Of a stretch of 64,000 bases of DNA, positions 41,882 through 60,029 are shown piece by piece. The stretch comes from Patescibacteria group bacterium (GTDB taxonomy: Bacteria; Patescibacteriota; Minisyncoccia; UBA6257; 2-01-FULL-56-20). The notes under the pieces are model-generated. The model saw nothing but the letters and a program-made list of their open reading frames with translations. It was not told where the DNA came from and made no database searches. Each line of letters opens with the position of its first letter. Position 1 is the first letter of the stretch. The DNA lies in assembly GCA_038063055.1 (NCBI GenBank), contig JBBTVY010000005.1, positions 2,444 to 66,443 of the forward strand. Reading direction: 5' to 3'. Position numbers and translations under genes: made by a program.

Positions 41882-42289
41882 TTATTTTCCTCTCTTAGCG
41901 TCCAAGCTCCACTGTCCGGCACCGGCCGCCGAGAAATAAAGGAATATGAAAGCGTAAAGAACCGCGGCGACTCCCCCGTTCATAACGGGCCAGAAACCGC
42001 CCGGGAAATGAAACTGGAAATAAGCCACGGCCATCATGCCGGAGAGAATAAACGCAACCGGGCGCGTAAAGAGCCCTAGGATTAGTAAAACGCCGCCGAC
42101 TACTTCAAGAATTCCAGCTATTCCCATCTGGGACATTAATTCCACGGTTCCGCCTGCCGGCGGGATTCCCGCCGGAAAAGCAAACAGTTTCATCGTGCCC
42201 GCGAGCAGGAACATGAATGCCGCGACTATCCTCAAAACGCTCTGGAAATAAGGGCTCCAGGAAACCCATTTTGATGTGATGTTGTTCAT
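41882..42289 (-). CDS. DoxX-family membrane protein
   Basis: 'LRIVAAFMFLLAGTMKL...GILEVVGGVLLILGLFTRPVAFIL' DoxX pattern. Confidence 0.65.
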   Translation of the reverse strand: MNNITSKWVSWSPYFQSVLRIVAAFMFLLAGTMKLFAFPAGIPPAGGTVELMSQMGIAGILEVVGGVLLILGLFTRPVAFILSGMMAVAYFQFHFPGGFWPVMNGGVAAVLYAFIFLYFSAAGAGQWSLDAKRGK

Positions 42290-43208: not shown

Positions 43209-43571
43209 CTAATTGTTTTCAGAACCAGATATCTTTTCCTTCTTTTCCTCGATTGCGGACGGAGAATCTTCAGCCAAATCTTTGAAATCTATCTTTGGTT
43301 TGCCGTTGCCATTAGGCGAAACTTTTTTGAGCTTGTCGTTGATGAAATTGTCCACCTTCATAAGAACGACTTTCATTTTCCGCAGGAATTTAGTCAAAAA
43401 ACCGTTGAAAGCGGCGTCTATTTTTTCCGGAATTTCCGAAGAAGAAAAACGTTCAAAAAAATCAGGTTTGTCCGAAAATTCTTCATCGACGCGCGGTAGC
43501 GAACGGACAACAAGATAAAGCATCGTTCCGAGAGACGCCATCAAAATCGTTGTTAAAATGAATTGGAGCAT
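43209..43571 (-). CDS. Hypothetical small membrane protein
   Basis: N-terminal TM 'ILTTILMASLGTMLYLVV'. Confidence 0.4.
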   Translation of the reverse strand: MLQFILTTILMASLGTMLYLVVRSLPRVDEEFSDKPDFFERFSSSEIPEKIDAAFNGFLTKFLRKMKVVLMKVDNFINDKLKKVSPNGNGKPKIDFKDLAEDSPSAIEEKKEKISGSENN

Positions 43572-43704
43572 GATTACTAAAATTTCTAAGCACTAATATC
43601 TAATTTCTAAATAAATTCCAATGTCTTAAAATTACAAATGTTTGAGAAATTGAAATTTGTGACTTTGTTTAGAATTTCGCGATTAGAATTTAGGATTTTA
43701 TAAA

Positions 43705-44151
43705 TTATAACTCCAATCTGGAAAAAGCTTTAACTTTTATATTTTCACCGACTTGGGCGATGGTCAGCTTTATAAGTTCGTCTATCGTTTTGGACTCGTC
43801 TTTAATATACGGCTGTTTCAAAAGTTCTTCAACATTGGCTGGGCCAATGGCCGCTATTTGCATGGCAAGTTCGTGGGCCAGTTTCCGGAACGGTTCGGAG
43901 CGAACCACGAAGTCCGTCTCCGCGCGGACATCAAGAACAACTCCTATACGCTCGTTATGCACATAAGATTCTATCAGGCCGGCTCCGGCTTCTCTGCCCG
44001 CTCTTTTTTCCACTTTTGCCAAACCGCGTTCGTGTATTATTTTGACAGCCGCGTCTAAATCGCCTTTGCTTTCCGCGAAAGCCCGCTTGCACTCCATTAC
44101 TCCCGCTCCCGTCATGTCGCGCAATTTTTTTATGGAATCAACGGCTGTCAT
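43705..44151 (-). CDS. tsf: Elongation factor Ts (short form)
   Basis: 'IKKLRDMTGAGVMECKRAF' UBA-like N-terminus; internal start preferred; downstream of rpsB. Confidence 0.8.
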   Translation of the reverse strand: MTAVDSIKKLRDMTGAGVMECKRAFAESKGDLDAAVKIIHERGLAKVEKRAGREAGAGLIESYVHNERIGVVLDVRAETDFVVRSEPFRKLAHELAMQIAAIGPANVEELLKQPYIKDESKTIDELIKLTIAQVGENIKVKAFSRLEL

Positions 44152-44164
44152 AAAATATATCGAT

Positions 44165-44938
44165 TCAACTTGTTTTTGTTTCCGAAACCGCTTCAGCCGG
44201 TTCCTTCGGCTGGGCAACCACTGCGGCCCTGCCTTCTTTAATCGTTTCACTCATTTTACCCAAAAACCAAATGATGCTTTTTCTCGCCTTTGTGTTTCCG
44301 ACAATCGGGTACTCAACGATTCCAGGGTCTATATCGGTGTTTACGTAAGCGACAACCGGAATTCCGGCACGGTTGGCTTCGAGGACGGCAGTCATGTGCT
44401 GAGTCGTGTCAATGACAATAAGAACTTCCGGAAGGGCGGCGTAATTTTCAAGTCCGCCGAAAAGTTCCTCAAGGCGCCGTAATTCTTTTTCAAAACCAAG
44501 CTGTTCTTTTTTGGTGTATTTCCCCAGGGCGCCGCTTTTAAGTTCCGATTTTAATTTCCTGTAATATTCTATCCTTTTTGAAAGCACTTTGAAATTGGTT
44601 ATAAGCCCGCCGAGCCAGCGCACGTTGACGTACAGCAGATTCAGTTCTTTGGCGAAATCCGTCACCGCGTCGGACGCCTGAGGCTGCGTTCCGACAATCA
44701 TAACCGTTCCCCCGTTCCTGACTTTTTCTTTTACGAATGCGGACGCTTTTTCGAGTCCGTCAACGGTCTTTTGGAGGTTGATTATTTCTATTTCGTTACG
44801 CGTCGTCAGAATGTAGGGCTTCATCCGCGGATGCGTTTTTGTTTTTTTGCGTCCGAGAAAAACGCCCGCCTCGGTCAGGTCTTTGAACGCTCCTTCCGGG
44901 TAAAGGTCGGTTAAATTGTCCTGTTTTGTTTCTTCCAT
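44165..44938 (-). CDS. rpsB: 30S ribosomal protein S2
   Basis: 'LTEAGVFLGRKKTKTHPRMKPYI' S2 signature. Confidence 0.9.
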   Translation of the reverse strand: MEETKQDNLTDLYPEGAFKDLTEAGVFLGRKKTKTHPRMKPYILTTRNEIEIINLQKTVDGLEKASAFVKEKVRNGGTVMIVGTQPQASDAVTDFAKELNLLYVNVRWLGGLITNFKVLSKRIEYYRKLKSELKSGALGKYTKKEQLGFEKELRRLEELFGGLENYAALPEVLIVIDTTQHMTAVLEANRAGIPVVAYVNTDIDPGIVEYPIVGNTKARKSIIWFLGKMSETIKEGRAAVVAQPKEPAEAVSETKTS

Positions 44939-44985
44939 TGGTTACTAATTTACAGATTTTTACGAATATACGAATAGATTTTATT
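44939..44985. repeat. Truncated copy of the 78-bp palindromic 5'-UTR element, directly upstream of the rpsB start
   Basis: 'ggttactaatttacagatttttacgaatatacgaata' has 2 mismatches against 50621..50657. Confidence 0.7.
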
Positions 44986-45081
44986 TACTCATTACGTAAA
45001 ATCGCGCATTGTTATTTGGGGTTTATTGAGATTACGGTTAATAATTGTAAGCGATAACGGCTTTTTTTGCAAATCATTTTT

Positions 45082-45609
45082 TCAGAACTCTATTCCGTAT
45101 TTCGCGAGCTCGCCGTCGTTGAAGGGATGTTTTATTTCCTTCATTTCGGTCACCAGATTGGCAATATCAACGAATTCCTGCGGTGCGTTCCGTCCGCTCA
45201 AAATGAGCAAATTTTCTTTTGGATAATCCTTTATGGCCTCGAGAACACGCTCAGCATTGAGAATCCCGATTGAAACGGCGACATTGATTTCGTCAAGAAC
45301 TATCAACTGCCATTTTCCCGAAGCCGCCTCTTTTTTAAAAAACTCCAGCGCTTTTTCCGCCGCCTTCCGGTGTTCTTCGCGGGGCAATTTGTCGCCGAGT
45401 ATTCCGACGAACCCAAGACCCATTTTTACAATCTTAAATCTTAAATCATCAATCTTAAATCTTTCTCCGAACTCGTCTTCGCCTGAACGCCACGGACCCT
45501 TGATGAACTGAATCATCAAGGCGTTTTTGCCTCTGCCGATAACACGCACCATCTGCCCCAATGAAGCGGTCGTTTTTCCTTTACCATTCCCTGTAAATAA
45601 TAAAATCAT
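45082..45609 (-). CDS. ATP:cob(I)alamin adenosyltransferase (CobO/BtuR family)
   Basis: 'FTGNGKGKTTAS', 'QFIKG', 'GE', 'LDE', 'SGR', 'KHPF' in E. coli BtuR order. Contains an in-frame (AATCTTAAATC)x3 mini-repeat. Confidence 0.75.
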   Translation of the reverse strand: MILLFTGNGKGKTTASLGQMVRVIGRGKNALMIQFIKGPWRSGEDEFGERFKIDDLRFKIVKMGLGFVGILGDKLPREEHRKAAEKALEFFKKEAASGKWQLIVLDEINVAVSIGILNAERVLEAIKDYPKENLLILSGRNAPQEFVDIANLVTEMKEIKHPFNDGELAKYGIEF

Positions 45610-45610
45610 T

Positions 45611-46849
45611 TTATTTTATTACTCCACCACCGAGCACTTCCATGTCCTCCGTAGCCTCGGCGAAGGAGGAACTTGATTTCGAACCCGCCGTCGTTAAAGC
45701 TTTGGCGGGCACGTAGAATACCGCGGACTGGCCTGCGGCAACGAATTTTTGGGGCTTGTCGAAAACAAGCTTCAGTTCTCTGCCTTTTTCAAATTCGAGC
45801 GACGCTCTAAAAAGCGGCTGACGGTAGCGGACTCTGGCAAATACGGAAATCGGCAATTTGTCATCGGTTATTTGGTTGATGAAATTCAAATCCGTCAGCC
45901 CAACTTCTTCCCTGAAAAGCGATTCGTCGCTTTCGCCTTCGGCAACTACTAAGGTGTTATTGCGGACGTTTTTGCCAGAAACGTAAAACGGCTTGTTCCC
46001 TTCGTCAGTCCTTTTCCAGTCGCCAGAATAAAGCCCATGCCTTTGTCCAATGGTATAGAAATGCGCGCCGGAATGTTTTCCTATTTTCTTTCCGGAGACG
46101 TTTAAAACAACTCCCTTTTTGACCGGCAAATAATTTCTCAAAAAATCAGAGAGGGTCACTTTGCCGAGAAAACAAATTCCCTGCGAATCTTTCTTTTCGG
46201 CCGTGGGTAAGCCGGCTTTTTTAGCGATTGCTCTGACTTCCGGTTTTAAGTAATCGCCTATTGGAAAAAGACAATGCTTAAGCTGCTCCTGGTTCAAAGT
46301 CCACAAAAAATAACTCTGGTCCTTGCTCTTGTCTTTGGCTGCATAAAGCGAAAAACGGCCGTTTTTTTCTTTGATTCTTACGTAATGTCCGGTAGCCACG
46401 TAATCCGCTCCGAACTTCAGCGCTTTTTCAAGAAACAGGCCGAATTTTATTTCTTTGTTGCACATTACGTCCGGATTCGGGGTGAGCCCGCGGCGGTAGC
46501 CGTCAACCATGTAATCGACGACTTTCTTTTTATATTCCTCCTCGAAATCCCAGACATAGAAAGGAATGCCGAGTTTTCCGGCGACGCGGCGCGCGTCTTC
46601 CGCGTCGGTTTCGGCGCAGTTTACCCCGAGCGATTTATCCCGAGCCGCGTCGAGGGAAGTCGAGGGGCCGTTATCGCTTCCCAAGCAACGCATAAAAACG
46701 CCGATTACGTCGTAACCTTTTTTTTTGAGCAAAAGGGCGGCCACCGACGAATCAACGCCTCCCGACATGGCGACAAAAACCAATTTCTTTTTTGAAACTG
46801 ATTTGCGCTTGGACATTCCGACAAATACGTTTTCTCCTTTAGACATCAA
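45611..46849 (-). CDS. mnmA: tRNA 2-thiouridylase MnmA
   Basis: PP-loop 'SGGVDSS'; length and motifs typical of MnmA. Confidence 0.85.
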   Translation of the reverse strand: MMSKGENVFVGMSKRKSVSKKKLVFVAMSGGVDSSVAALLLKKKGYDVIGVFMRCLGSDNGPSTSLDAARDKSLGVNCAETDAEDARRVAGKLGIPFYVWDFEEEYKKKVVDYMVDGYRRGLTPNPDVMCNKEIKFGLFLEKALKFGADYVATGHYVRIKEKNGRFSLYAAKDKSKDQSYFLWTLNQEQLKHCLFPIGDYLKPEVRAIAKKAGLPTAEKKDSQGICFLGKVTLSDFLRNYLPVKKGVVLNVSGKKIGKHSGAHFYTIGQRHGLYSGDWKRTDEGNKPFYVSGKNVRNNTLVVAEGESDESLFREEVGLTDLNFINQITDDKLPISVFARVRYRQPLFRASLEFEKGRELKLVFDKPQKFVAAGQSAVFYVPAKALTTAGSKSSSSFAEATEDMEVLGGGVIK

Positions 46850-48117
46850 TCTTTGCCTTCATATTCCCTCGCCAGAAGCTGAGAATCAATCTGCCGCATC
46901 ATATCGAGAACAACCGCGACGACGATAAGAAGCGCCGTTCCGCTTACGTTCAAAACAGATATTTTGGTGAACGCCTGAACCACCAGCGGCAAAATCGCTA
47001 TCGTCCCGAGAGCCACCGCTCCGAGAAAAGTAACCCTGCCAATCAGCTTGGAAAAATAATTTGCCGTCGCTTCGCCCGGCCTGATGCCCGGCACGAAACC
47101 GCCGCTCCTCTGAAGATTTTTTGAAACTTCTTCCGGATTGAAAGTTATCGCCGTGTAAAAATACGTGAAAAGAACAACCAGCAAAAAGTAAAAAATTCCG
47201 TAAAAAAGTGTATTGTTCAAAAAACCGGTAACCAGGTCGTTGAGTTTCAACGCCAAATTAACTGAAAAAATAGACGTTATCTGGGCCAAAAACTGGGGAA
47301 ACAGAAGGACGGAAATGGCGAATATAAGCGGAATCATTCCGGCCTGGTTGACTTTAAGCGGGAGATAGCTTTGCACTCCTCCGAACATTTTCATTCCCCT
47401 GACACGCCTGGCGTAAGCCACGGGAACTTTTCTCTGGCCTTCGTTCAGATAAACGACGCCCGCCACCAAAAACAACGTTACTAAAATGAAACCGATGTAA
47501 GTAGGCAGAGCGGACGGAGTATACGACAAAAGCGCCTGCTGAACCCCGACGGGCAAACTGCTTACGATGCCCGCTAAAATTATAAGGGAAACTCCGTTGC
47601 CGATTTTCTGTTCGCTTATGAGTTCGCCGAACCAGAGAGCTATCATGGAACCGGCGGTAATCGCGAGAACGTTTCCTATCATGTCGAAAGCGCTCGGTCG
47701 CTGAATGATATTTTGCGAAATCAGGAGGCTCAAAAAACCGTAGGCCTGAAGAAAGGCGAGCGGGACGGTCAACATGCGCGAATACTGGTTGAATTTGGCC
47801 TGTCCTCTGGCGCCTTCTTCGTACATCATTTCTTTGAGGCGCGGAAAAATAATCGTTAAAAGCTGCATTATGATTGTCGCCGTGATGTAGGGGCCAACTC
47901 CCAACATCGCCACCGACAGTGTGGATAAACCGCCGCCGGAGAAAATATTAAGAAAACCGAAAAGCTGGTTAGACGAGAAAAACTGTTCAAGGCGCAACGC
48001 GTCTATTCCAGGAATCGGCACCGCGGCCAAAACACGGAAAGAAACCAGAAGCCCGAGAACTACGAGAATTTTCTTCCGCAAATCCTTGATTTTAAATATC
48101 TGCAAGAAACGGTTCAT
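46846..48117 (-). CDS. secY: Preprotein translocase subunit SecY
   Basis: 10-TM SecY pattern; positioned after rplO. Confidence 0.9.
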   Translation of the reverse strand: MNRFLQIFKIKDLRKKILVVLGLLVSFRVLAAVPIPGIDALRLEQFFSSNQLFGFLNIFSGGGLSTLSVAMLGVGPYITATIIMQLLTIIFPRLKEMMYEEGARGQAKFNQYSRMLTVPLAFLQAYGFLSLLISQNIIQRPSAFDMIGNVLAITAGSMIALWFGELISEQKIGNGVSLIILAGIVSSLPVGVQQALLSYTPSALPTYIGFILVTLFLVAGVVYLNEGQRKVPVAYARRVRGMKMFGGVQSYLPLKVNQAGMIPLIFAISVLLFPQFLAQITSIFSVNLALKLNDLVTGFLNNTLFYGIFYFLLVVLFTYFYTAITFNPEEVSKNLQRSGGFVPGIRPGEATANYFSKLIGRVTFLGAVALGTIAILPLVVQAFTKISVLNVSGTALLIVVAVVLDMMRQIDSQLLAREYEGKD

Positions 48118-48141
48118 TTAAAAAATATCAAAAAGAATTTT

Positions 48142-48630
48142 TTACTTTTTGGACTTTGATTTTTCATTTTTTATTTCGGCCTTTGGACTTTGAATTTCCA
48201 GTTTACCGCCGGCTTTTTCTATCTTTTCGCCGGCCGACTTGGAAAAATGAATCCCCTTGATTGAAACGGGAGAATCTATGTTGCCGCCCAAAATCTTGAC
48301 TTCTCCCCGATAATACATCGGCAAAATTCCTATTTCTTTCAGAAAGTTCCTGTCGATTTCAACTATTTTCTTTTCTTTGGAAAAGATACCGATTTTTTTG
48401 GATAATTCAGAAAGACCGACAATGAACGGCTTTTCCGAAACCGGCCGGTTCTGGTATCCGCGCCTTTTCGGCAGGCGGAGAATAAGATCCCTTATCGCCG
48501 GCCTTATTCTGCGGCCAGCCCTGGATTTTTGCCCCTTCGTTCCGCGTCCGGAAAAGGTTCCACGTTTGCCGCCTCGGCCGATGCGCTTCTTGGATTTTTT
48601 ATTTCTAGGAATTAAATTATGGAGCTGCAT
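48142..48630 (-). CDS. rplO: 50S ribosomal protein L15
   Basis: 'RIGRGGKRGTFSGRGTKGQKSRAG'. Confidence 0.9.
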   Translation of the reverse strand: MQLHNLIPRNKKSKKRIGRGGKRGTFSGRGTKGQKSRAGRRIRPAIRDLILRLPKRRGYQNRPVSEKPFIVGLSELSKKIGIFSKEKKIVEIDRNFLKEIGILPMYYRGEVKILGGNIDSPVSIKGIHFSKSAGEKIEKAGGKLEIQSPKAEIKNEKSKSKK

Positions 48631-48640
48631 GATTTTATTT

Positions 48641-49123
48641 TTATTGCATCGCTTTGCCCGGCGCTTCGGATCTCAGTTTCTTCAAGGCTTCAATCGTAGC
48701 CATAGCATTGGTAAGTTTGTTTGATGTGCGGCCCAAACATTTGGCGGTTGCGTCACGAACGCCGGAAAGCGCCAAAACCGAACGCACCGCTCCCCCGGCT
48801 TTTAACCCGTGTCCCGCAACCGCCGGTTTTATCAAAACTTTCGCGGCGCTGTATTTGGCATCGACTTCATGCGGAATAGTCCTGTTGTCTTTGAGATGGA
48901 TAAAAATAATCTTTTTCTTGGCGGCCGTTTTCGCCTTTTCAACCGAGCTTTGAACATCAAGTCCCTTAGCTACACCCACGCCGATTCTTCCCTTTTCGTC
49001 GCCTATAACTACGGTCGCCCTGAAACGGAAACGCTTTCCGCCGGCGACAACGCGAGTTACCCTCCGAATGTCGAGCACTTTTTCCTTAAATTCTTCTTTT
49101 TTTACGTATCTTTCTCTTCTCAT
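48641..49123 (-). CDS. rpsE: 30S ribosomal protein S5
   Basis: 'RVTRVVAGGKRFRFRATVVIGDEKGRIGVGVAKG'; directly abuts rplO with no L30 gene. Confidence 0.9.
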   Translation of the reverse strand: MRRERYVKKEEFKEKVLDIRRVTRVVAGGKRFRFRATVVIGDEKGRIGVGVAKGLDVQSSVEKAKTAAKKKIIFIHLKDNRTIPHEVDAKYSAAKVLIKPAVAGHGLKAGGAVRSVLALSGVRDATAKCLGRTSNKLTNAMATIEALKKLRSEAPGKAMQ

Positions 49124-49240
49124 GCCAATTTTATTTGTGAAAACAAGTTTAACTCATTAACTCAGTTTGAGCAAGCATAAAATTGAGCACCATGTTAGAT
49201 AGAAAATTCTTCGCTTTCAGCTCTAATTTTTTAACAAACT

Positions 49241-49603
49241 CTAAATTTTTAAGCCGCCTTTTTTTGCTCCTTCGGCGATTGCCTTAACGCGGCCGTGATA
49301 TTTGTACGAACCACGGTCAAAAATTGCCTGCTTGACTCCCGCGGCCATGGCTTTTTTCGCGAGTTCTTCTCCGACGCGCGAAGCCTGCGCCGTTTTCGAA
49401 TCCTTATGCGCCGATTTTTTTATTCCGGGCGCCGAAACACCCGCCAGAGTACGACCCTTTTCATCGTCGATCAGCTGCGCATAAACATACCGGTTGCTCC
49501 TAAAAACTGAAAGTCTCGGTTTTTGCGCTGTTCCGAAAATTTTAGCCCTTGTTCTTCTTTGTCGCCGCGTTTTTATTTCATTTAATATTTTTTTCTGATT
49601 CAT
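49241..49603 (-). CDS. rplR: 50S ribosomal protein L18
   Basis: 'RLSVFRSNRYVYAQLIDDEKGRTLAG'. Confidence 0.9.
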   Translation of the reverse strand: MNQKKILNEIKTRRQRRTRAKIFGTAQKPRLSVFRSNRYVYAQLIDDEKGRTLAGVSAPGIKKSAHKDSKTAQASRVGEELAKKAMAAGVKQAIFDRGSYKYHGRVKAIAEGAKKGGLKI

Positions 49604-49609
49604 GTTTCT

Positions 49610-50155
49610 TTATGCCGCGGCTGTGGCTACTTTCTTGCCGGCCTTTCTTCTGATGACTTCATTTTTATAACGGATGCCTTTGCCCTTGTAAGGTTCCGGT
49701 TTTTTAAGCTGTCTTATTTTAGCCGCCGTTTCTCCCACGAGTTGCTTGTCCATCCCGGACACCGTGATTACGTTTTTTTCGACGGTTATCGAAATGCCCT
49801 CCGGAACCTCGAATTTTACCGGTTTTACGTATCCGAGCGACAGCATGAGATTTTTGCCTTCTGTGTTCGCGCGATAACCTATTCCCTCTATTTCAAGAAT
49901 TTTAGAAAAGCCGGCTGAAACTCCCTGCGAGGCGTTTTTAACAAGAGACCACATTGTGCCGGCGTTGGCGCGCGCCTGTCTGACATTATTGGTCTGTGAA
50001 ATTTCCGCCAAGCCGCCATCGGTCTTTATTTTCAAAAAAGGCAGAATAGAAACCTTCAATTCGCCTTTCGGCCCCTTTAAAAACAAAATTCCGGATTCCT
50101 CCCTAACCGTCACTCCTTCGGGCAATATTACTGGTTTTTTTGCTAGTCTGCTCAT
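49610..50155 (-). CDS. rplF: 50S ribosomal protein L6
   Basis: 'MSRLAKKPVILPEGVTV'; internal start preferred. Confidence 0.85.
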   Translation of the reverse strand: MSRLAKKPVILPEGVTVREESGILFLKGPKGELKVSILPFLKIKTDGGLAEISQTNNVRQARANAGTMWSLVKNASQGVSAGFSKILEIEGIGYRANTEGKNLMLSLGYVKPVKFEVPEGISITVEKNVITVSGMDKQLVGETAAKIRQLKKPEPYKGKGIRYKNEVIRRKAGKKVATAAA

Positions 50156-50237
50156 GAATCGTTTCTGCAAATGGTGCGGGGTAAGGTTTGGCAACCAATC
50201 GCACTGCGCTTATTGCTTGCGCTCTTGGGCCAAGCCC

Positions 50238-50618
50238 TTACCATATTTCGAACAAATATTCCCCGCCGACTTTTTTCTTGCGCGCGTCGCGGTCCGCCAA
50301 AATTCCCTGGGTCGTGGAAAACATGCCAAGCCCGTATCCCTGCTTCACTTTCCTGACTTCTCCGCTTCTGACGTAAATATGGCGGCTTGGACGGCTTATT
50401 ATTTTAAAATCGTTGAATGATGAAGAATTGTTTTTGTAATTAATTTTTATTTCGATGAAATTTCTGTTTCCCACCGTTTTTTTCTGGACATCCTTCAAAT
50501 ATCCGTTGGCGGCGAGAATTTTTGCCACCTCGAAATCAAAATTAGAAAAAGGAGTTGAAAAATTTTCCTTTTTCGCGTTGACTGCGTTTTTAATTTTTGC
50601 CAAAAGGTCGTAGTACAT
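50238..50618 (-). CDS. rpsH: 30S ribosomal protein S8
   Basis: S8 family pattern and operon position. Confidence 0.9.
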   Translation of the reverse strand: MYYDLLAKIKNAVNAKKENFSTPFSNFDFEVAKILAANGYLKDVQKKTVGNRNFIEIKINYKNNSSSFNDFKIISRPSRHIYVRSGEVRKVKQGYGLGMFSTTQGILADRDARKKKVGGEYLFEIW

Positions 50619-50625
50619 TGGGTTA

Positions 50626-50703
50626 CTAATTTACAGATTTTTATGAATATACGAATAAAAATTTTGTTTATTTATAAAATTCGTATATTCGTACTGATTC
50701 GTA
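50626..50703. repeat. 78-bp palindromic element in the rpsH 5' UTR, identical to 53996..54073
   Basis: 'ctaatttacagatttttatgaatatacgaataaaaattttgtttatttataaaattcgtatattcgtactgattcgta' contains the inverted repeat gaatatacgaata/tattcgtatattc. Confidence 0.85.
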
Positions 50704-50713
50704 CTTCGTAAAA

Positions 50714-50899
50714 TCACCATGAAGCTTTTTTAACGCCCGGTATCTCGCCCCGGCTGGCCATTTCCCTGAAACAAATCCTGCACAGGCCAAAAGTTCTCAT
50801 ATATCCCCTTTTTCGTCCGCACCGAAAACAGCGCCTTACGGACCTTGTGGAAAATTTTGGAGTTTTTTTGCTCCGGGCTATTACTGAAAGTTTTGCCAT
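50714..50899 (-). CDS. rpsN: 30S ribosomal protein S14 (type Z, zinc-binding)
   Basis: 61 aa with '[23 protein letters not shown]'. Confidence 0.9.
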
Positions 50900-50900
50900 T

Positions 50901-51422
50901 TTATTTTTTCAGCGGCACGCCAAGACGGCGATATTCGCCTATTGCTTCTTCGCGGTTTTTTTTCTTCGGCACGACGTTGATTCCAAAAGAAAAAATGATT
51001 GGCGATTCTTCCGGGTTTATTTCCGGAAACACCATTTGCTCCGGAAAACCGAGGTTAAGCGTTCCTACCTTGTCTATAAAATCCTGATCAACGCCCCTGA
51101 AATCGCGCACGCGGGGCAATACTATTGTAATCAGGCGCTCAAAAAAATCAACCATTTTATGGCGACGCAGGGTTACCTTGATTCCGACAATTTGCCCTTC
51201 CCTGACTTTGAATCCGGCGATTGATTTTTTCGCTTTTGCCGTTTCTGGTCTCTGCCCTGCGATCGCCGAAATATCACGGATTAACTGCGGCAGGATCTTT
51301 TCGTCAAAATTCGGCTGTTGGCTCAAACGGCCAACGCCGGCGTTGATTACTATCTTTTCCAGAAACTTGGAAATTTCTGGTTTGCGTCCTGTTTTTATTT
51401 TTGAAACGTTAATTTTGGTCAT
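50901..51422 (-). CDS. rplE: 50S ribosomal protein L5
   Basis: L5 family pattern and operon position. Confidence 0.9.
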
Positions 51423-51454
51423 CTTGTGGTGAGTTTTATCGAACCATTTTTATT

Positions 51455-51772
51455 TCAGATTTTGGCTCCGCATTTTTTGCAGTGGCGCGTTTTTAGTCCG
51501 CCGCCCGACGAACCTTCAATTTGGAAACCGACGCGGGTATGCTTTTTGCAGTTCGGGCAGATAATCATCGCGTTTGAAGACGAAAACGGCCTGGAGACCA
51601 TTACCGTTTCTCCTTTTTCTCCCTGGCGGCGGGGTTTTACCCGCTTTTTGTAGATATTGACTCCCTCCACGGTTATTCTGGATTCCTCCGGAAAAACGCG
51701 GATAACGGCCCCGGTTTTGCCGCGGTCTTTCCCGCTGATTATTTTAACTTGGTCTCCTTTTTTTATTTTCAT
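51455..51772 (-). CDS. rplX: 50S ribosomal protein L24 with C-terminal zinc-ribbon extension
   Basis: KOW 'KIKKGDQVKIISGKDRGKTGAV' followed by 'CPNCKKH...CKKCGAKI'. Confidence 0.85.
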   Translation of the reverse strand: MKIKKGDQVKIISGKDRGKTGAVIRVFPEESRITVEGVNIYKKRVKPRRQGEKGETVMVSRPFSSSNAMIICPNCKKHTRVGFQIEGSSGGGLKTRHCKKCGAKI

Positions 51773-51818
51773 GTTAGTTTTTCTTAACGAACGTAAGTGA
51801 GTTTAGAAACAACTTACA

Positions 51819-51929
51819 CCCCGCACCTTTGCTGCAAAAATTCAGAATGCGACCCAAAATAAAGCGGAGCGATTCGCCTGCGGCTTTGTTTTGATTTGTT
51901 TTCATAATCTTTGCCATAAAGGTGCGGGG
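51819..51929 (-). repeat. 12-bp perfect inverted repeat with an 87-nt loop in the rplN-rplX spacer (long structured 5' UTR of rplX)
   Basis: 'ccccgcaccttt' at 51819..51830 pairs with 'aaaggtgcgggg' at 51918..51929; the 193-bp spacer is otherwise atypical in this compact operon. Confidence 0.55.
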
Positions 51930-51965
51930 TTTAGAACTTGTAATTCGCTTCGCTCATAACAATTT

Positions 51966-52334
51966 CTAAACTATTTCTTCGGCCATCGTCATTATTTTTT
52001 CAAAACCCCTGCCTTTCAGTTCCCGCGGCAAAGGCCCGAAAATTCTGGTTGCCACGGGTTCTTTTTTGGCGTCGACAATAACGGCGGCGTTTTCGTCAAA
52101 GCGTACATAGGAACCGTCCGCTCTTCTGTACGGCTTTCTGCTTCTCACAAGAACCGCCCTGACAATGTCTTTATTTTTTATGTTTTTTCTTGGTTCGGCT
52201 TCCTGTACGGACGCTATGAAAATATCTCCGATTCCGGCATAGCGGCGTCTGGTTCCCCCCAAAATGCGGAAACAGCGTATTTTTTTCGCACCGCTGTTAT
52301 CAGCGACTTTTAATATTGAACGTTCCTGAATCAT
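51966..52334 (-). CDS. rplN: 50S ribosomal protein L14
   Basis: 'MIQERSILKVADNSGAKK'. Confidence 0.9.
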   Translation of the reverse strand: MIQERSILKVADNSGAKKIRCFRILGGTRRRYAGIGDIFIASVQEAEPRKNIKNKDIVRAVLVRSRKPYRRADGSYVRFDENAAVIVDAKKEPVATRIFGPLPRELKGRGFEKIMTMAEEIV

Positions 52335-52338
52335 TTTA

Positions 52339-52623
52339 TTATTCCGATTCTTTTCTTTTTTCCGACAGACCGATAATCGTCCACCTTTTATCCTTTGACA
52401 GCGGCCTGGTTTCCTCGATAACGACTTTATCGCCGGCGCGGTATTCGTTTTTTTCGTCGTGCGCCTTGAATTTGGCGGTGACTTTATAGTACTTCAGATA
52501 TTTCGGATGTTTTTTCAGGCGGGTAACCGCAATCACCCGGGTCTTTTGCATTTTGTCCGAAACAATCATGCCGGTTAATCTCCTTTTTCTTTTTTGGGTT
52601 TCTTTAGTCATTTTGATATTCAT
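52339..52623 (-). CDS. rpsQ: 30S ribosomal protein S17
   Basis: S17 family pattern and operon position. Confidence 0.85.
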
Positions 52624-52829
52624 ATTTTCCCGCCGTCCGATTTACCTTTAATGAAAGTGATGGTTCTGGCAATGTCTTTTTTAAGAGAGCGGAGGTCCTT
52701 CACGTTTTTAACTTTGCCTGCAGCCAGATCGAATTTTAAAACGCGGAGCTTCTCCCTGGAATCTTTGACGAATTTTTCCAATTCCGCGAGCGGTTTGTTT
52801 TTTAATTCTGTTATTTCTTTTCTTTTCAT
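52620..52829 (-). CDS. rpmC: 50S ribosomal protein L29
   Basis: 69 aa helical; operon position. Confidence 0.85.
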
Positions 52830-52842
52830 GTTTTCCCGGTTA

Positions 52843-53262
52843 TTAAGCTTTTGGTTTTGAAACCACGCGGCTCTTGAACGGCAGCTTGTGGGCGGCCCGG
52901 CGAAGCGCTTCGCGAGCCACTTCTTCTCCGACTCCGTCCACCTCGAGAATTATCCTTCCCGGCCTGACTGGGAAAACATAATGGTCGACGCTACCCTTGC
53001 CTCCGCCCATCGTGGTTTCCGGCGGACGCTTGGTAATCGGCTTGTCCGGAAAAACCCTTATCCAAAGCCTGCCTTGTCTCTTAAGAAAATGGGTGACGGC
53101 GCGGCGCGCGGCTTCTATTTGCCGAGAAGTAAGCCAAGCCGCTTCCGTGGCCTTCAATCCGAATTCACCGTAATTAATGAGCACCCCTCTTCCTTCTTTA
53201 AGGCGGCCGCGAGACCTGCCTTTTTGCCATTTCCTGTGTTTTACTTTTTTTGGTATAAGCAT
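52843..53262 (-). CDS. rplP: 50S ribosomal protein L16
   Basis: '[16 protein letters not shown]'. Confidence 0.9.
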
Positions 53263-53304
53263 GTTAGTTTCTAAATTTGTAAGGTTAATTTATAATTTAT
53301 AACT

Positions 53305-53988
53305 TTATGAACTTTTAACTTTTGAAAATACTTCGCCCTTATATATCCAAACTTTTATTCCGATGGTTCCGTAAGTGGTAAAAGCTGTTGCCGTCCCGTA
53401 ATCAATATCGGCGCGAAGATTTTGCAAAGGCAAAGCGCCTTTCTTCAGCGATTCGTCTCTGGCGATTTCAGCGCCGCCAAGGCGGCCCGCCAAAAGAATC
53501 TTTGCTCCCTTTACTTCCCTGTTCTGCACCATCTGCTCCATATATTTTTTCATGGTCCTGCGGAAAGGCATGCGTTTTTCCAAATCCCAGGCTATTTGTT
53601 GAGCCACGTAAGGCGCTGCGATTTCAGACCTCTTGAGTTCTTCAATATTGACGCTCACGTTGACCCGACCCTTGGCTTCTTTTCCTTTTTTGAGAGAATC
53701 TTCCAAAGCTTTCGTGAACTCTTCGATTCCTTTTCCGCCGCGTCCGATTATGAATCCGGGCCGCGCCGCCTTGATGAAAACTTTCAGGTTGTTTATGGTT
53801 CTTTCTATTTCAACCGAAGCGATGCCGGCCATATTCAGTTTCTCGCGTATAAGTTTTCTGATTATCTCGTCTTCGGCGAGATATTTTGGGTAAGTGGAAC
53901 GTCCTCCCTTGTCCGGCAAAAACCAGCGAACCGGCCAGTTCTTTATTATTCCTAAACGAAAAGATTGTGGATTTATTTTCTGTCCCAT
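53305..53988 (-). CDS. rpsC: 30S ribosomal protein S3
   Basis: 'MGQKINPQSFRLGI' and KH domain. Confidence 0.9.
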   Translation of the reverse strand: MGQKINPQSFRLGIIKNWPVRWFLPDKGGRSTYPKYLAEDEIIRKLIREKLNMAGIASVEIERTINNLKVFIKAARPGFIIGRGGKGIEEFTKALEDSLKKGKEAKGRVNVSVNIEELKRSEIAAPYVAQQIAWDLEKRMPFRRTMKKYMEQMVQNREVKGAKILLAGRLGGAEIARDESLKKGALPLQNLRADIDYGTATAFTTYGTIGIKVWIYKGEVFSKVKSS

Positions 53989-53995
53989 GGTGTTG

Positions 53996-54073
53996 CTAAT
54001 TTACAGATTTTTATGAATATACGAATAAAAATTTTGTTTATTTATAAAATTCGTATATTCGTACTGATTCGTA
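53996..54073. repeat. 78-bp palindromic element in the rpsC 5' UTR, identical to 50626..50703
   Basis: Exact 78/78 match by eye. Confidence 0.85.
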
Positions 54074-54083
54074 ATTTCGCATA

Positions 54084-54614
54084 CTAAACTGATTTTCTTC
54101 TGAAAATCTTTTTGAAGAAACCCGGTTTCTGGTGGGTGGCCTGTTCCGCCGACTTTCTTTCTGCAGAAAGTTTCTTTTCTTTTTTTGGTTCTTCCTGCGC
54201 GGTTTTTTTGGTTTTTTTCCTGATTTCCATCCTGAAGCGGGCTTTCTTTAATTCGGGATTTTCGGACAAAACAAGGGTAACATGACTCATTTTCTTTTGG
54301 ATAGGGGTGGCTATTCCTTTCGCCCGCGGCAGTATTCTTTTGAGCATCGGGCCCTGGTCGACGCGAATGCTTTCAATGTAAAGTTTGTCCGGACTGGATT
54401 TGAAATTACGTACGGCTCCGGCAACCGCAGAACGCAGCAATTTCAAAATCGGCTTGGCGGCCCGTCTGTTTTGAACGACAAGCTGAGCTTCGGCTTCGTT
54501 TACCGTCAAGCCCTTCAACAAACCGGCAATGGCTCTTGCTTTTCGTGGCGCCATCCGCAGATAACTCAAACGGGCCGTTTCTTTCATTTTTTTGTCGGCA
54601 GTTTGTTCGGTCAT
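54084..54614 (-). CDS. rplV: 50S ribosomal protein L22 with Lys-rich C-terminal extension
   Basis: 'RMAPRKARAIAGLLKGLTVNEAEAQL'. Confidence 0.85.
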   Translation of the reverse strand: MTEQTADKKMKETARLSYLRMAPRKARAIAGLLKGLTVNEAEAQLVVQNRRAAKPILKLLRSAVAGAVRNFKSSPDKLYIESIRVDQGPMLKRILPRAKGIATPIQKKMSHVTLVLSENPELKKARFRMEIRKKTKKTAQEEPKKEKKLSAERKSAEQATHQKPGFFKKIFRRKSV

Positions 54615-54617
54615 GTT

Positions 54618-54935
54618 TTAAGAAGTTTTAGCCGCCGGTTTTTGGGCTGTTTCGGTCTTTTGTTCCAATTCTTTCTGCATCTTTCCGCCGTGCCTCACGA
54701 ACTTTCTTGTCGGAGAAAATTCTCCGAGACGGTGCCCGACCATATCTTCGTTTACCCTGACCTCAATGAAATTTTTTCCGTTGTGGACGGAAAAAACATA
54801 CCCGACCATTTCTGGCGAAATTTCCGAAGCGCGCGACCAGGTTTTTATGGGACTTCCCTCGCCGGCTTTTTGGCGGGAAATTTTTTTCAGAATATCAGAC
54901 GCCACGTAGGGCGGTTTTTTTGATGAACGCGACAT
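54618..54935 (-). CDS. rpsS: 30S ribosomal protein S19
   Basis: '[16 protein letters not shown]...[13 protein letters not shown]'. Confidence 0.9.
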
Positions 54936-55031
54936 AATCGTTTTGTGGTATCGATACCAATATACGTAATGATGCTAATTATACAAATACAATTCGTATC
55001 ATTAGTAAATTAGTATATTCGCATCGATACA

Positions 55032-55853
55032 TTACTTTCTTCGTTTAATTATCATCTTACTCGACCACTTTTTCTTATTTCTGGTTTTTCTTCCGCCGGT
55101 AATTTTACCCCAAAGCGTTTTCGGGCGGCGCGTGCCTCGCGGCTGTCTGCCTTCGCCTCCGCCGTACGGATGGTCAACCGGGTTCATGGCCGTGCCTCTT
55201 ACCGTCGGCCTGATGCCGAGCCAGCGTGAACGCCCTGCTTTGCCGATAACCGTAAGATTGTGCTCGGAATTCGAAACTTTTCCCAACGAAGCATAGCCGC
55301 CCCACTGGACGCGTCTTATTTCACCGGAAGAAAGCTTAAGGTCGGTGTATCCGCCGTCGTTGGCCAGAACTTCCGCGAAAGAACCGGCCGACCTGGCCAT
55401 TTGGCCGCCGCGGCCCGGAGTAAGCTCAACGTTGTGAACCTGATATCCAACTGGTATGTTTTTCAGCATCAGCCTGTTGCCGGTTTTCAGCGGCGCCGAT
55501 TCGGCCGAAATTATTTCGGAGCCGATTTCGAGCCCACTCGGAGCAAGAACGTAGCGGCGTTCTCCGTCTTTGTATTTCAACAGGACTATGAAAGCGGTGC
55601 GATACGGGTCATATTCCAATGTTTCCACCCTGGCCGATTGATTGAACTTGTTCTGCCTGAAATCTATATCGCGATAAAGCTTTTTGTGTCCGCCGGATTG
55701 ATGGCGCGTCGTTATTCTGCCCTGGCTGTTCCGGCCGGCGTGCGCCTTAAGCCGCCTAGTAAGCTGTTTTCGCGGTTTTGTTTTTGAAAGACCGGAATAA
55801 TCCGGATGGGTGGTTTGCCGCCTGGAAGGGGTTGTCGGTGAATAAGTTTTCAT
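55032..55853 (-). CDS. rplB: 50S ribosomal protein L2
   Basis: 'GGGEGRQ' and L2 family pattern. Confidence 0.9.
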   Translation of the reverse strand: MKTYSPTTPSRRQTTHPDYSGLSKTKPRKQLTRRLKAHAGRNSQGRITTRHQSGGHKKLYRDIDFRQNKFNQSARVETLEYDPYRTAFIVLLKYKDGERRYVLAPSGLEIGSEIISAESAPLKTGNRLMLKNIPVGYQVHNVELTPGRGGQMARSAGSFAEVLANDGGYTDLKLSSGEIRRVQWGGYASLGKVSNSEHNLTVIGKAGRSRWLGIRPTVRGTAMNPVDHPYGGGEGRQPRGTRRPKTLWGKITGGRKTRNKKKWSSKMIIKRRK

Positions 55854-55854
55854 T

Positions 55855-56130
55855 TTAGTTTATTTCTATTTTTTGTCCTTCCTTAAGGGTTACGATGGCT
55901 TTCTTGTGGCCGGACCTGGCGCCTGCTTTGTTCCGGAATTTCTTTACTTTCGGATGACGCGTCACTGTCTTGATTTTCACGACATCGATTCCATAAATCT
56001 TTTTAAGCGCTTTTTTTATTTCGTTTTTTGTGGACGAAAGTTCTACCATAAAAACATATTTTCCGGCTTTGCTCAAATCAGTGGCTTTCTCGGTGATATG
56101 CGGCTTTTTTATGACAAATGAGCTTTTCAT
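55855..56130 (-). CDS. rplW: 50S ribosomal protein L23
   Basis: Operon position and L23 pattern. Confidence 0.85.
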   Translation of the reverse strand: MKSSFVIKKPHITEKATDLSKAGKYVFMVELSSTKNEIKKALKKIYGIDVVKIKTVTRHPKVKKFRNKAGARSGHKKAIVTLKEGQKIEIN

Positions 56131-56194
56131 TTTAGTTTGTAATTAAACTTTTGTTTAATCAATCGGTTCGCTCGGCTAAAATTAAAATAGAATT

Positions 56195-56854
56195 TCATTT
56201 TACTCCTCGCTGCCGATTGTAATGCTTGGTTATCGACGGAACGGCTTTCTGGTCTATGAAAACGTTTTTGTGTTTCATTATTTCGTAAACATTAAGCGAT
56301 TCCGGACTTATTACTCCTGCCTTTTGAAGGTTAGCGGCCGCCCTGAAAATTTTTTTATTCTCCATATCCGGAACGAAAAGAATGTCGTACTTATTTGAAT
56401 TTTTCCGGAGTTTAACGAGATTTTTCAAAAGCTCCGCGAGGATTTTTGTTTTAGCCGATTCTATTTCCAGCGTTTCAAAAAATTTGACTTCGCCGTCATT
56501 GAGTTTTTTCGAAAGAAGGCTCATAAGCGCGATGCGGCGCATTTTTTTGTTCACTTTTTGCGAATAATCCCTCTCCTTGCTCGGTCCGTGGGCTTTGCCG
56601 CCGCCCTTCCAGAGCGGAGAGCGTATTGAGCCGTGACGGGCGCGTCCGGTTCCTTTTTGCCTCCACGGTTTCTTGCCTCCTCCTCTGACTTCGCCTCTTC
56701 CTTTGGCGTGCGCCCAGGGACGGCGCAAATTGGCGAGTTGCGCGCTGAGAATCTGGGCGATGAGAGATGCTTTCCACGGCGCGCCGAAAACCTTCTCCGG
56801 CAAATCTATCTCGCCGACTTTTTCATTTTTCCAGTTGTAGATATTCGTTTTCAT
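56195..56854 (-). CDS. rplD: 50S ribosomal protein L4
   Basis: L4 family pattern; start at 56854 (MKTNIYNW) preferred over the listed 56917, which would run into a palindromic spacer. Confidence 0.8.
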   Translation of the reverse strand: MKTNIYNWKNEKVGEIDLPEKVFGAPWKASLIAQILSAQLANLRRPWAHAKGRGEVRGGGKKPWRQKGTGRARHGSIRSPLWKGGGKAHGPSKERDYSQKVNKKMRRIALMSLLSKKLNDGEVKFFETLEIESAKTKILAELLKNLVKLRKNSNKYDILFVPDMENKKIFRAAANLQKAGVISPESLNVYEIMKHKNVFIDQKAVPSITKHYNRQRGVK

Positions 56855-56929
56855 GAAAATTGATTTATGATTTAAGATTTTGGATTTAAGAATAATTATT
56901 TCGTGTTCATAATTCATAAATCATAATTC

Positions 56930-57502
56930 TTAAATCTTTTGTATCTCAAGTAGTCCTCCGCGGGCTCCCGGAACGGCTCCTTTTATCATTAAAATGTTTT
57001 TATCCACGTCGACTCCGGCTACGGTGAGATTTTTGACGGTAACGCGGTCGCCGCCCATCCGTCCGGCCATTTTCCTTCCCGGAAAAACTTTTTGCGGAGC
57101 GGTTGAACCTATCGAACCGGGGGCGCGCAAGCGGTTCTTCTGCCCGTGCGTTTTTGGACCACCATGGAAACCGTGCCTTTTGACTACGCCCTGGAATCCG
57201 CGCCCCTTGGAAACTCCGCTTACTCTGACAATGTCGCCTTCCTTGAAAACGGAAATGTTAACAGCATCGTCAACTTTGAACTTTTCCGCCAGAGGCGGAT
57301 CCGCCTTCGGCGGAGAACTTTGAACTTTGAACTCTCGCTTTCGTTTGCCGAAAGCGAGCTGGACGGCTTCATAACCGTCTTTTTCTTTTGTGCGGACGAG
57401 AGTTACCTTGTTTTTGGAAACTTCAACCAAAGTCACCGGAATGACCTTGTCTTCTTTCCAAATCTGGCTCATGTTCAGTTTTTTGCCCAATATGAAAGAC
57501 AT
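56930..57502 (-). CDS. rplC: 50S ribosomal protein L3
   Basis: 'MSFILGKKLNMSQIW'; internal start preferred. Confidence 0.85.
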   Translation of the reverse strand: MSFILGKKLNMSQIWKEDKVIPVTLVEVSKNKVTLVRTKEKDGYEAVQLAFGKRKREFKVQSSPPKADPPLAEKFKVDDAVNISVFKEGDIVRVSGVSKGRGFQGVVKRHGFHGGPKTHGQKNRLRAPGSIGSTAPQKVFPGRKMAGRMGGDRVTVKNLTVAGVDVDKNILMIKGAVPGARGGLLEIQKI

Positions 57503-57590
57503 CTTGGTTTTCTGCGAAAATCGGTATGTATACGATTTGGCGCATGCCGGAATATTGTATACAAACAAACGGCTCCCGTCAATATGGGTA

Positions 57591-57634
57591 ATAAAAAAAA
57601 TGAATCGCCGGGCTTCCCGAAGGAAGTCCCGGCT
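57591..57634 (-). terminator. Rho-independent terminator on the minus strand, downstream of the inserted 107-aa gene
   Basis: 'gccgggacttccttcgggaagcccggc' followed by 'gattcatttttttt' on the minus strand. Confidence 0.7.
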
Positions 57635-57722
57635 TGATGCTTGGAGATATGTTGATGTACTATAGTATGTCGACTCAATGCCCTCCTCGCTTTTGCATTA
57701 GCCCTTTTTGCCGGATGCTATC

Positions 57723-58046: not shown

Positions 58047-58125
58047 AGCAGGAAACTCCTAATATTCACATGGCGAATTTGCCATGATTATTAAAACACT
58101 AGAAACTAAAAACTACAAGCGTAGA

Positions 58126-58250
58126 TTTTCGGTTTAAGAGAAGCTATCGCAGACACAAAAAGCTTGGTCTCGCGGAGCGAGTTTTTGTGTCGAGATGCAA
58201 GAATGCCCATCCGCTGGAGATGGGCAATTCTGGTTCTCTTAAACCGAAAA
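58126..58250 (-). other. Structured non-coding leader: 17-bp perfect inverted repeat enclosing two nested hairpins
   Basis: 'ttttcggtttaagagaa' at 58126..58142 pairs with 'ttctcttaaaccgaaaa' at 58234..58250. Inner stems gcccat/atgggc and gacacaaaaa/tttttgtgtc. Confidence 0.55.
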
Positions 58251-58262
58251 TTGGAGCCCCCT

Positions 58263-59997: not shown

Positions 59998-60029
59998 CCC
60001 CCGTGCCATAACGGCGATGGGACATACCG

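Follow-up and report, generated by a model that had tools for sequence, protein, structure and literature searches.

A start-codon-proximal leader and hairpin element shared by ribosomal-protein operons and many unrelated genes of Patescibacteria

Why should two spacers in an otherwise compact ribosomal-protein gene cluster be filled by the same sequence? The question arises in a 64,000-nt stretch of a Patescibacteria group bacterium genome (GCA_038063055.1, contig JBBTVY010000005.1, positions 2,444 to 66,443; hereafter the window). The window corresponds almost exactly to a contig from Hainich groundwater, ERZ1292629 Hain_H43_01um_R1_12 (194,945 bp; 5 mismatches over 20.7 kb), and its best S3 matches carry the labels Patescibacteria group and Ca. 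Liptonbacteria. An original prediction made from the sequence alone described an identical 78-bp palindromic element in the leaders of rpsH and rpsC, with a truncated copy before rpsB, and considered processing or re-initiation sites, a regulator binding site, or a selfish repeat that had colonised ribosomal-protein leaders. We propose, with moderate confidence, that the two 78-bp sequences are copies of a lineage-wide element of Patescibacteria (Parcubacteria-type) that acts in cis on mRNA. The family apparently has not been described before: it has no Rfam family and we found no literature on it.

Positions 50626–50703 and 53996–54073 proved identical over exactly 78 bp, with identity ending at both sides, and a gapless alignment of the rpsH and rpsC leader copies (repeat family D6) reaches 91 nt at 96% identity. 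Both copies lie in minus-strand spacers, rpsN–rpsH and rplV–rpsC, in a region where every gene is on the minus strand; the start-proximal part of the element is its 3′ arm in the mRNA sense. Pfam matches bear out the gene names of the original prediction: S14 and S8 flank the rpsN–rpsH copy, L22 and S3 flank the rplV–rpsC copy, and S2 follows the third copy. Since the coding sequences around the two 78-bp copies are unrelated and the repeat contains no coding sequence, the identity is not due to a segmental duplication, the outcome that would have counted against a dispersed element. The recurrence at rpsB (family D7) is present in shorter form than described: a firm match to the rpsH copy spans 44940–44976 (37 nt, one mismatch), and the 47 nt over 44939–44985 that had been credited with two mismatches contain seven. 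The word TACGAATA occurs eight times in the window against 1.55 expected, with 7/8 occurrences inside these ribosomal-protein spacers. The predicted AT-rich inverted repeat is also real, as both the rpsH and the rpsC spacer fold as mRNA-sense RNA at −17.1 kcal/mol (0/200 shuffles as stable), and z-scores for the spacers folded in the window run from −3.75 to −6.25 (Table 1). A shared, dispersed element thus does occupy spacers of otherwise compact operons.

Table 1. Copies, relatives and associated features of the element in the window (positions counted from the first nucleotide of the window)
Feature	Positions	Strand	Evidence or remarks
Full element, rplV–rpsC spacer	53989–54083	−	Sequence, flanking Pfam matches, hidden Markov model (HMM) match to 3′ arm, fold z = −3.99
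rpsC copy, 5′ arm TATGCGAAATTACGAATCAGTACGAATATACGAAT	54049–54083	−	
rpsC copy, apical loop	54027–54048	−	
rpsC copy, 3′ arm ATTCGTATATTCATAAAAATCTGTAAATTAGCAACA	53991–54026	−	Followed by CC and the rpsC ATG at 53988
Full element, rpsN–rpsH spacer	50619–50713	−	Sequence, HMM match, fold z = −3.75
rpsH copy, 5′ arm TTTTACGAAGTACGAATCAGTACGAATATACGAAT	50679–50713	−	Directly behind the rpsN stop TGA (50714–50716)
rpsH copy, apical loop TTTATAAATAAACAAAATTTTT	50657–50678	−	
rpsH copy, 3′ arm ATTCGTATATTCATAAAAATCTGTAAATTAGTAACC	50621–50656	−	Followed by CA and the rpsH ATG at 50618
Half element (3′ arm only) ATTCGTATATTCGTAAAAATCTGTAAATTAGTAACC, rpsB 5′ untranslated region	44940–44975	−	Ends 1 nt before the rpsB ATG (44938); HMM match
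rpsB sigma-70-type promoter, TTTGCA/TTGCAA, 17–18 nt, TACAAT	45044–45073	−	Promoter scan
Diverged relative, tuf–rpsJ spacer	58593–58704	−	Fold −33.5 kcal/mol, z = −5.93; alignment to rpsH copy; partial HMM match
Hairpin of >30 bp, rplB–rpsS spacer	54936–55031	−	Fold −31.6 kcal/mol, z = −6.25; alignment

An HMM of the arm detects three copies in 74 kb of this genome, and the 10 kb read beyond the window added no further copies. The genome-wide scan suggested in the original prediction accordingly gives no enrichment outside the ribosomal-protein cluster within these 74 kb; the enrichment lies across the lineage. A metagenome scan with ATTCGTAYRTTCRTAAAAATYNGTA returned at least 119 stretches, and the matches listed, together with the loci of relatives, form a non-redundant set of 130 copies. 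Among the matches listed, an open reading frame (ORF) starts 10–21 nt past the end of the pattern in 109/130 copies, with a peak at 12, and 57 of these 109 distances lie within 3 nt of each other. The common consensus, ATTCGTATATTCGTAAAAATTCGTAATTCGTAGGGTT-ATG, is longer than the search pattern, showing that conservation extends past it. With the arm HMM, 16 further inexact copies came to light, and 14 of these precede an ORF start. Scanning a genome collection with a strict 23-nt pattern, probably too strict, yielded a single additional locus (L003), with the arm in front of a gene for an M23 peptidase. Two patterns found no match in viral contigs, which leaves no evidence of phage carriage. 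Ca. Liptonbacteria and Ca. Jorgensenbacteria are among the hosts that could be named, the latter through one host protein.

The genes behind the element bear directly on its function. All three window copies stand before small-subunit protein genes, as would suit an autoregulatory leader in which rpsH, rpsC and rpsB share a mimic of an S8, S3 or S2 binding site. The gene census effectively refutes this explanation: 129 Pfam families are represented among the 84 scanned downstream proteins, which therefore form no regulon, and copies in relatives precede other ribosomal-protein genes, including large-subunit genes, and tuf. Pfam places ribosomal proteins, EF-Tu, RpoC, GyrA, PyrG, Pth, KsgA, RRF, SecDF, transporters and methyltransferases among the downstream products, and several further N-termini are ones that we take to be GroES/GroEL, DnaJ, YchF and pilins. 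The element has therefore not colonised ribosomal-protein leaders specifically, as had been supposed; the same arm stands before >100 unrelated genes on many Patescibacteria contigs. Nor does a known RNA family account for it. Rfam at gathering score reports only three tRNAs over the whole window, and even at E ≤ 5 over 43400–63400 only spurious miRNA hairpin models appear, on the tuf–rpsJ spacer and far below thresholds. The exact sequence strings occur in no paper that we found, and we found no description for Patescibacteria or the candidate phyla radiation (CPR).

The original prediction took the palindrome to be the core of the element. We find instead that the conserved unit is the gene-proximal 3′ arm, ~33–36 nt with four tandem AUUCGUA heptads and an A-run after the second. 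The complementary 5′ arm is present in ~70 copies and absent from ~58, so that the 3′ arm stands alone in ~45% of copies. Arm-less copies tend to lie behind promoters: TATAAT-like hexamers that start 8–19 nt upstream of the motif number 23 in the 58 arm-less copies vs. 9 in the 70 hairpin copies, and several arm-less copies in other contigs have full −35/−10 pairs ending 3–15 nt before the arm. In such promoter-adjacent copies the arm would begin at about the transcription start and make up essentially the whole 5′ untranslated region. At rpsB in the window, the half element lies 69 nt downstream of the promoter, which argues that it is transcribed as a leader and is not the promoter itself. 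A conserved GC-rich structured segment (...GACCATGCC...CCTCGCTTAA...) occurs upstream of the arm in contigs L070, L079, L043 and L050; the gene that follows in L070 and L079 is dnaJ by its N-terminal sequence.

Conservation at rpsB singles out the arm. We compared the rpsB spacers of the window and of a relative from Ca. Liptonbacteria (L004) by hand and by script. The arm is identical at 34/37 positions and the promoter at 28/30, whereas the four-fold degenerate sites of rpsB agree at only 47/91, indicating purifying selection on the arm in this orthologous leader. The stretch between promoter and arm cannot be aligned, and spacer length differs by ~50 nt. Across lineages, the L24, L5 and L22 proteins encoded behind the motif on other contigs share only 44–57% identity with their window orthologues.

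Could the arm itself be a promoter? It contains −10-like hexamers (TATATT or TAAAAAT) and many genes that carry it are first in their transcription unit, so that an internal promoter cassette for rpsC, rpsH and others might be imagined. We regard this as very improbable, and the promoter scan together with the canonical promoters upstream led us to reject it. The scan does not call the element as a sigma-70 promoter, and no conserved −35 lies 16–18 nt away. Canonical promoters do exist in this genome (TTGACA-N16-18-TAAAAT before rpsL and tuf, TTGCAA-N17-TACAAT before rpsB); at rpsB, in the window and in L004, they lie upstream of the arm, as do the full −35/−10 pairs of other contigs. The element is not an intrinsic terminator either: the terminator scan does not call its sites, and the stems are AT-rich and followed by AUAAAAAUCUG or a start codon, unlike a GC-rich hairpin with a U-run.

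A second DNA-level explanation is that direct and inverted ATTCGTA heptads form an operator array bound by a nucleoid protein or global transcription factor that controls many housekeeping genes. Operators are commonly built from short tandem and inverted words, as in the heptad repeats of CtsR and the hexamer arrays of Fur, and in promoter-proximal copies the array just downstream of the −10 box occupies a classic repressor position. Recognition as double-stranded DNA would also be compatible with the missing G–U strand signal described below. The spacing of the copies points the other way: the distance to the start codon is tight and the distance to the −10 box is loose, which favours a role in translation or at the mRNA level over promoter control. 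Many copies lie between cistrons of one operon where there is no promoter, with up to eight in 20 kb of L004, and the heptads are irregularly spaced (8, 10 and 7 nt) and out of helical phase. Moreover, the arms are complementary beyond the words themselves, including the length of the spacer between them, and a non-complementary loop (CAG vs. AAA) is kept, neither of which mirrored protein sites would need. An operator array therefore seems improbable to us.

Complementarity is most evident in the best-kept hairpin copies, whose 5′ and 3′ arms are reverse complements over ~30 nt. These copies have an outer stem (GGTTACGAATTTAC/GTAAATTCGTAGCC), a conserved non-complementary internal loop of approximately CAG opposite AAA, an inner stem (TACGAATGTACGAAT/ATTCGTATATTCGTA) and a variable apical loop; canonical copies have stems of 14 + 15 bp. 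RNAalifold on 18 diverse copies recovers a two-stem consensus in which five pairs show compensatory changes, mostly at the base. The spacer between heptads in the outer stem co-varies between the arms, including in length (3′ AAT with 5′ ATT in 12/19 cases, TT with AA in 13/20), and the L007 copies share a matched T–A to C–G change in the inner stem. Across 42 hairpins located between cistrons, the 5′ base follows the upstream stop by 1 nt and the 3′ base precedes the ATG by 6 nt (medians), so that ~8 nt of a spacer with a median length of 91 nt stay unpaired.

What the analysis establishes for the copies is that they form one family, with a characteristic position, an orientation bias, conservation, covarying arms and a regular geometry; action at the RNA level, and each step of the mechanism that follows, is inferred. 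The 3′ arm would be a conserved 5′ leader ending a few nucleotides before the start codon, serving translation initiation or mRNA stability and recognised by some conserved partner, as its near-invariance implies a specific one. In operons an inverted 5′ arm is often present and would pair with the 3′ arm to form a hairpin reaching from the upstream stop to ~6 nt before the next start, so that folding would shrink a ~90-nt spacer to an effective junction of ~8 nt. Such a hairpin might couple the downstream cistron to upstream termination, by termination–reinitiation across the folded spacer; it might also, or instead, be an RNase III processing site or a block to exonucleases that protects against PNPase and RNase J. 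CPR bacteria keep RNase III, RNase J and PNPase (PMC12641178). Copies would be homogenised or re-seeded within each genome, which could account both for the 100% identity seen here and for the different spacers occupied in relatives.

Several observations weigh against this reading. In the window copies only an inner stem of 12–13 bp forms and the outer stem is weak and largely degenerate; the ~26 nt before the ATG are unpaired in both full copies, which weakens coupling of the sequestration type there. The sense fold is not favoured over the antisense fold (−28.8 vs. −30.1 kcal/mol), and G–U pairs are about as frequent as A–C mismatches (52 vs. 50 in total over inner and outer stems), giving no RNA-strand signal, so that the pairing could be that of a DNA-level palindrome. 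Arm-less copies are found between cistrons too, immediately behind co-directional stop codons; the 5′ arm is therefore not required there, and we rejected the idea that it is confined to intercistronic copies and missing only at promoters. About 10/130 copies are in the opposite orientation; in L007, for example, a reversed hairpin stands before rplC, and other such copies adjoin the stop codon of an opposite-strand gene. Finally, part of the identity seen between lineages could be due to horizontal transfer and not to selection.

A bolder version of the cis-acting reading, which we offer tentatively, is that the four-AUUCGUA arm is a common leader, a lineage-specific translation-initiation signal through which a dedicated partner (a protein or an rRNA segment) would load or stabilise mRNAs. 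The hairpin would be its operon-internal, re-initiation form, and the element one of several word-repeat leader families. This would be set in organisms that make little use of Shine–Dalgarno sequences and often have leaderless mRNAs: even a loose Shine–Dalgarno tetramer precedes only 8/61 window genes. No 16S 3′ end was present in the fetched loci for a comparison with AUUCGUA. Separately, TATAAT lies 4–8 nt before the ATG of several window genes (for example upstream of 9915–10274, 14045–15727, 27291–27755 and 41882–42289), which suggests leaderless mRNAs.

The distribution of copies among relatives introduces the strongest of the other explanations. We compared the S10–spc region of four related genomes whose S3 is 79–90% identical to that of the window. 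In L004, the element precedes tuf, rplD, rpsS, rpsQ, rplX and rplO, with a half copy before rpsB, and the filled spacers include rplB–rpsS, rpmC–rpsQ and rplN–rplX. L005 and L006 carry it before rpsG, rplX, rpsH (rpsN–rpsH in L005), rplF and a SWEET-like gene; L007 has it before rpsG and rplP (rpsC–rplP), with variants before fusA and rplX and the inverted copy before rplC. As to the conservation of spacers that had been proposed as a check, the relatives keep the element and place it in different spacers, the rpsB half copy being the sole copy that window and L004 share by position. Lineage variants also differ, with CTGTAAATT in the Liptonbacteria-like group and TTCGTAATT elsewhere. These variants, with the 100% identity of the window copies, point to vertical inheritance accompanied by homogenisation or re-seeding within each genome.

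Near-identical copies within a genome and different occupied spacers among such close relatives are also what a selfish, non-autonomous palindromic repeat would produce. Such a repeat, resembling miniature inverted-repeat transposable elements (MITEs), repetitive extragenic palindromes (REPs) or enterobacterial repetitive intergenic consensus (ERIC) sequences, would have no function of its own and would be tolerated in tight junctions because its folding restores the proximity of stop and start. The ~8 nt left unpaired fit insertion into a short junction, the G–U test gave no RNA-strand signal, and contig L002, from another sample, starts inside the element, an assembly break typical at repeats. 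Its arms resemble terminal inverted repeats, canonical copies running CTACGAA...TTCGTAG, with a GTAG end like that of the GTAG-tagged REPs of which PMC3733652 speaks. The tag is found in canonical copies (TTCGTAG) and is missing from the window copies (TAGTAAC, TAGCAAC). Two L005 copies (~740–760 and ~19080–19100; also in L006) carry within their 5′ arm, at an identical TA^CGAAT position, a perfect 20-nt GC palindrome, CCTGCCTGCCGGCAGGCAGG. Such nesting sits well with mobility and could reflect either gene conversion or the insertion of another small palindromic sequence.

Other properties do not fit a selfish repeat. Among the matches listed, 109/130 copies point in the sense direction and sit 10–21 nt ahead of an ORF start, with ~10 reversed, where a MITE would show free orientation and register. 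The 3′ arm occurs alone, with a sharp 5′ boundary, in ~45% of copies and often directly behind a promoter; the half element is under purifying selection at rpsB (34/37 vs. 47/91); and the motif is kept across lineages whose ribosomal proteins are only 44–57% identical. Inspection of the flanks on the stop and ATG sides of examined copies, made without statistics, shows no target-site duplication, although terminal inverted repeats are present. We noted no transposase with these ends in 0.8 Mb of loci, in which no systematic search was made, and 74 kb of this genome contain only three copies. We therefore consider a purely selfish repeat rather unlikely, though it is the foremost of the competing explanations.

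Comparison with known dispersed palindromes leads to a similar view. Like ERIC sequences (also called intergenic repeat units) and the Correia elements (CREE) of Neisseria, which are small imperfect palindromes co-transcribed within operons, the present element is a dispersed multi-copy palindrome (those elements measure ~70–150 bp) in transcribed spacers, gives long RNA hairpins and varies in presence among relatives. ERIC and Correia elements can affect mRNA processing or stability, and Correia elements are RNase III substrates. They differ in occurring in both orientations at variable distances from genes, with target-site duplications (TA for Correia) and in narrow taxa, whereas the present element has a fixed orientation and start distance, a conserved arm that stands alone as a leader, and arms of tandem heptads. 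REPs and their composites, bacterial interspersed mosaic elements (BIMEs), which are mobilised by REP-associated tyrosine transposases (RAYTs), likewise are extragenic palindromes inside operons with a plausible exonuclease-barrier role, and their GTAG end recurs here in the canonical copies. REPs are, however, 20–40 bp, GC-rich, mostly located after genes and present in hundreds of copies; the present element is AT-rich (GC 19–39% in the spacers measured), 70–100 nt long and hugs the next start codon. No RAYT gene was noted, in loci not searched systematically for PF01797.

Functional systems offer closer parallels in geometry. The RNase III signals of phage T7 (R0.3, R1.1 and others) resemble the present hairpins in having two stems separated by an internal loop and in lying between cistrons, shortly before the next start; they are unique sequences that form no repeated family and have no stand-alone single-arm form, and for the present element cleavage is a possible role. 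An RNase III site takes about two helical turns of double-stranded RNA, against which stand the 14 + 15 bp of canonical copies and the 12–13 bp inner stem of the window copies. By analogy only, plastid intercistronic elements and PPR10-type sites also consist of a conserved single-stranded segment of a 5′ untranslated region or spacer that sets processed ends and keeps the start region open, and that segment can alternatively pair with a neighbouring complementary segment, as the arms can here. Plastid sites are gene-specific, whereas one sequence is common to >100 genes here. In translational coupling (E. coli rpmI–rplT and tight junctions), the stop lies at one foot of a hairpin and the next start at the other, and the effective ~8-nt junction proposed here resembles overlapping or near-overlapping operon junctions. 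Known cases of coupling involve individual, gene-specific structures that sequester a Shine–Dalgarno sequence; the present hairpin is modular and repeated in a genome almost without such sequences, and the start region of the window copies is not sequestered. The fixed start-codon register, the heptad single-arm leader and the breadth over deep CPR lineages set the element apart from all of these nearest known kinds.

The window has further spacers with related words, at which the original prediction was right in part. The tuf–rpsJ spacer is a true relative: ACGAAT words build the same two-stem architecture (outer stem of 12 bp, internal loop, inner stem) from arms that are complementary to one another yet unlike the canonical arms. 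The rplB–rpsS spacer holds partial words only, with remnants GCGAATATAC, TACGAAT and GTATATT and weak homology; the corresponding spacer of L004 carries an intact element, and the window hairpin is possibly a decayed copy whose arms co-evolved. The third site, at 15810–15890, is built from another word, TGCGAAT.

Other hairpin and leader families made of short tandem words (GAATTT, CTAGAAT, TGCGAAT, CTGACAC, GCTGAT and others), along with two longer conserved modules, occur at 62697–62796, 62136–62228, 51773–51965, 49124–49240, 43500–43704 and 15810–15890 of the window and in spacers of L004, L005 and L007. Each of these families is multi-copy; they occupy most ribosomal-protein spacers, at different junctions in different relatives. 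The window rplN–rplX element, for example, is found in the rplV–rpsC spacer of L005 and L007, and the window rplR–rpsE element before rpsH in L007. A further leader, which recurs before unrelated genes, has CTGTYTCTAACGGG as its end immediately in front of the ATG and often a short GC hairpin upstream; its sites include the start of a 929-aa ORF in the window (10325–13114), L127 at ~18779–18840 and L004 at ~11250–11285, and its genes include a Mur ligase gene and rpmC.

Additional features of the window concern gene order and leaders. Between rpsE and rplO the L30 gene is absent. An ORF of 84–107 aa between rpsJ and rplC (57723–58046, minus strand) is conserved in the window and four relatives, has no Pfam match and is among the few genes with a clear AGGAG before the start; the 216-nt spacer that precedes it (58047–58262) folds at −85 kcal/mol. 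The spc operon is followed by secY–mnmA–cobO–rpsB–tsf (45082–48117), without adk, map, infA, rpmJ, rpsM, rpsK, rpsD, rpoA or rplQ; secY–mnmA–cobO is kept in 4/4 relatives, and rpsB–tsf comes next in L004. In the rpsL leader (~63255–63346, minus strand), a GC hairpin (GGCTGCG...CGCAGCT) with a U-rich run behind it lies downstream of a canonical TTGACA-N18-TAAAAT promoter, giving the appearance of an attenuator or terminator-like leader. Elsewhere, two small genes of bAvd/23S_rRNA_IVP type (6476–6853 and 9915–10274) adjoin large ORFs without Pfam domains, which contain a 33-nt repeat family (repeats at 7527, 10996 and 11845); genes and repeats may together represent a diversity-generating retroelement. 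A 1223-aa ORF (23434–27105, minus strand) contains internal tandem repeats of ~510–1030 nt at 60–86% identity (families D1–D5).

The ultra-small Patescibacteria account for a substantial fraction of bacterial diversity and are hard to culture; their ribosomes are reduced and their RNases few. To our knowledge, almost nothing is known of their gene expression. A 33-nt sequence that is near-invariant before >100 unrelated genes, in organisms whose ribosomal proteins are only ~45–57% identical, strongly suggests an expression signal that has so far gone unrecognised. The arm could be used as a pull-down bait, as a motif for annotating gene starts and as a candidate part for emerging genetic systems. 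The repeat also accounts for assembly breaks in the marker ribosomal-protein operon used for CPR phylogenomics. Even if merely selfish, it would be unusual as a palindromic repeat with a strict start-codon register. As hairpins that fill junctions, its operon copies bear on how translational coupling persists in genomes almost without Shine–Dalgarno sequences.

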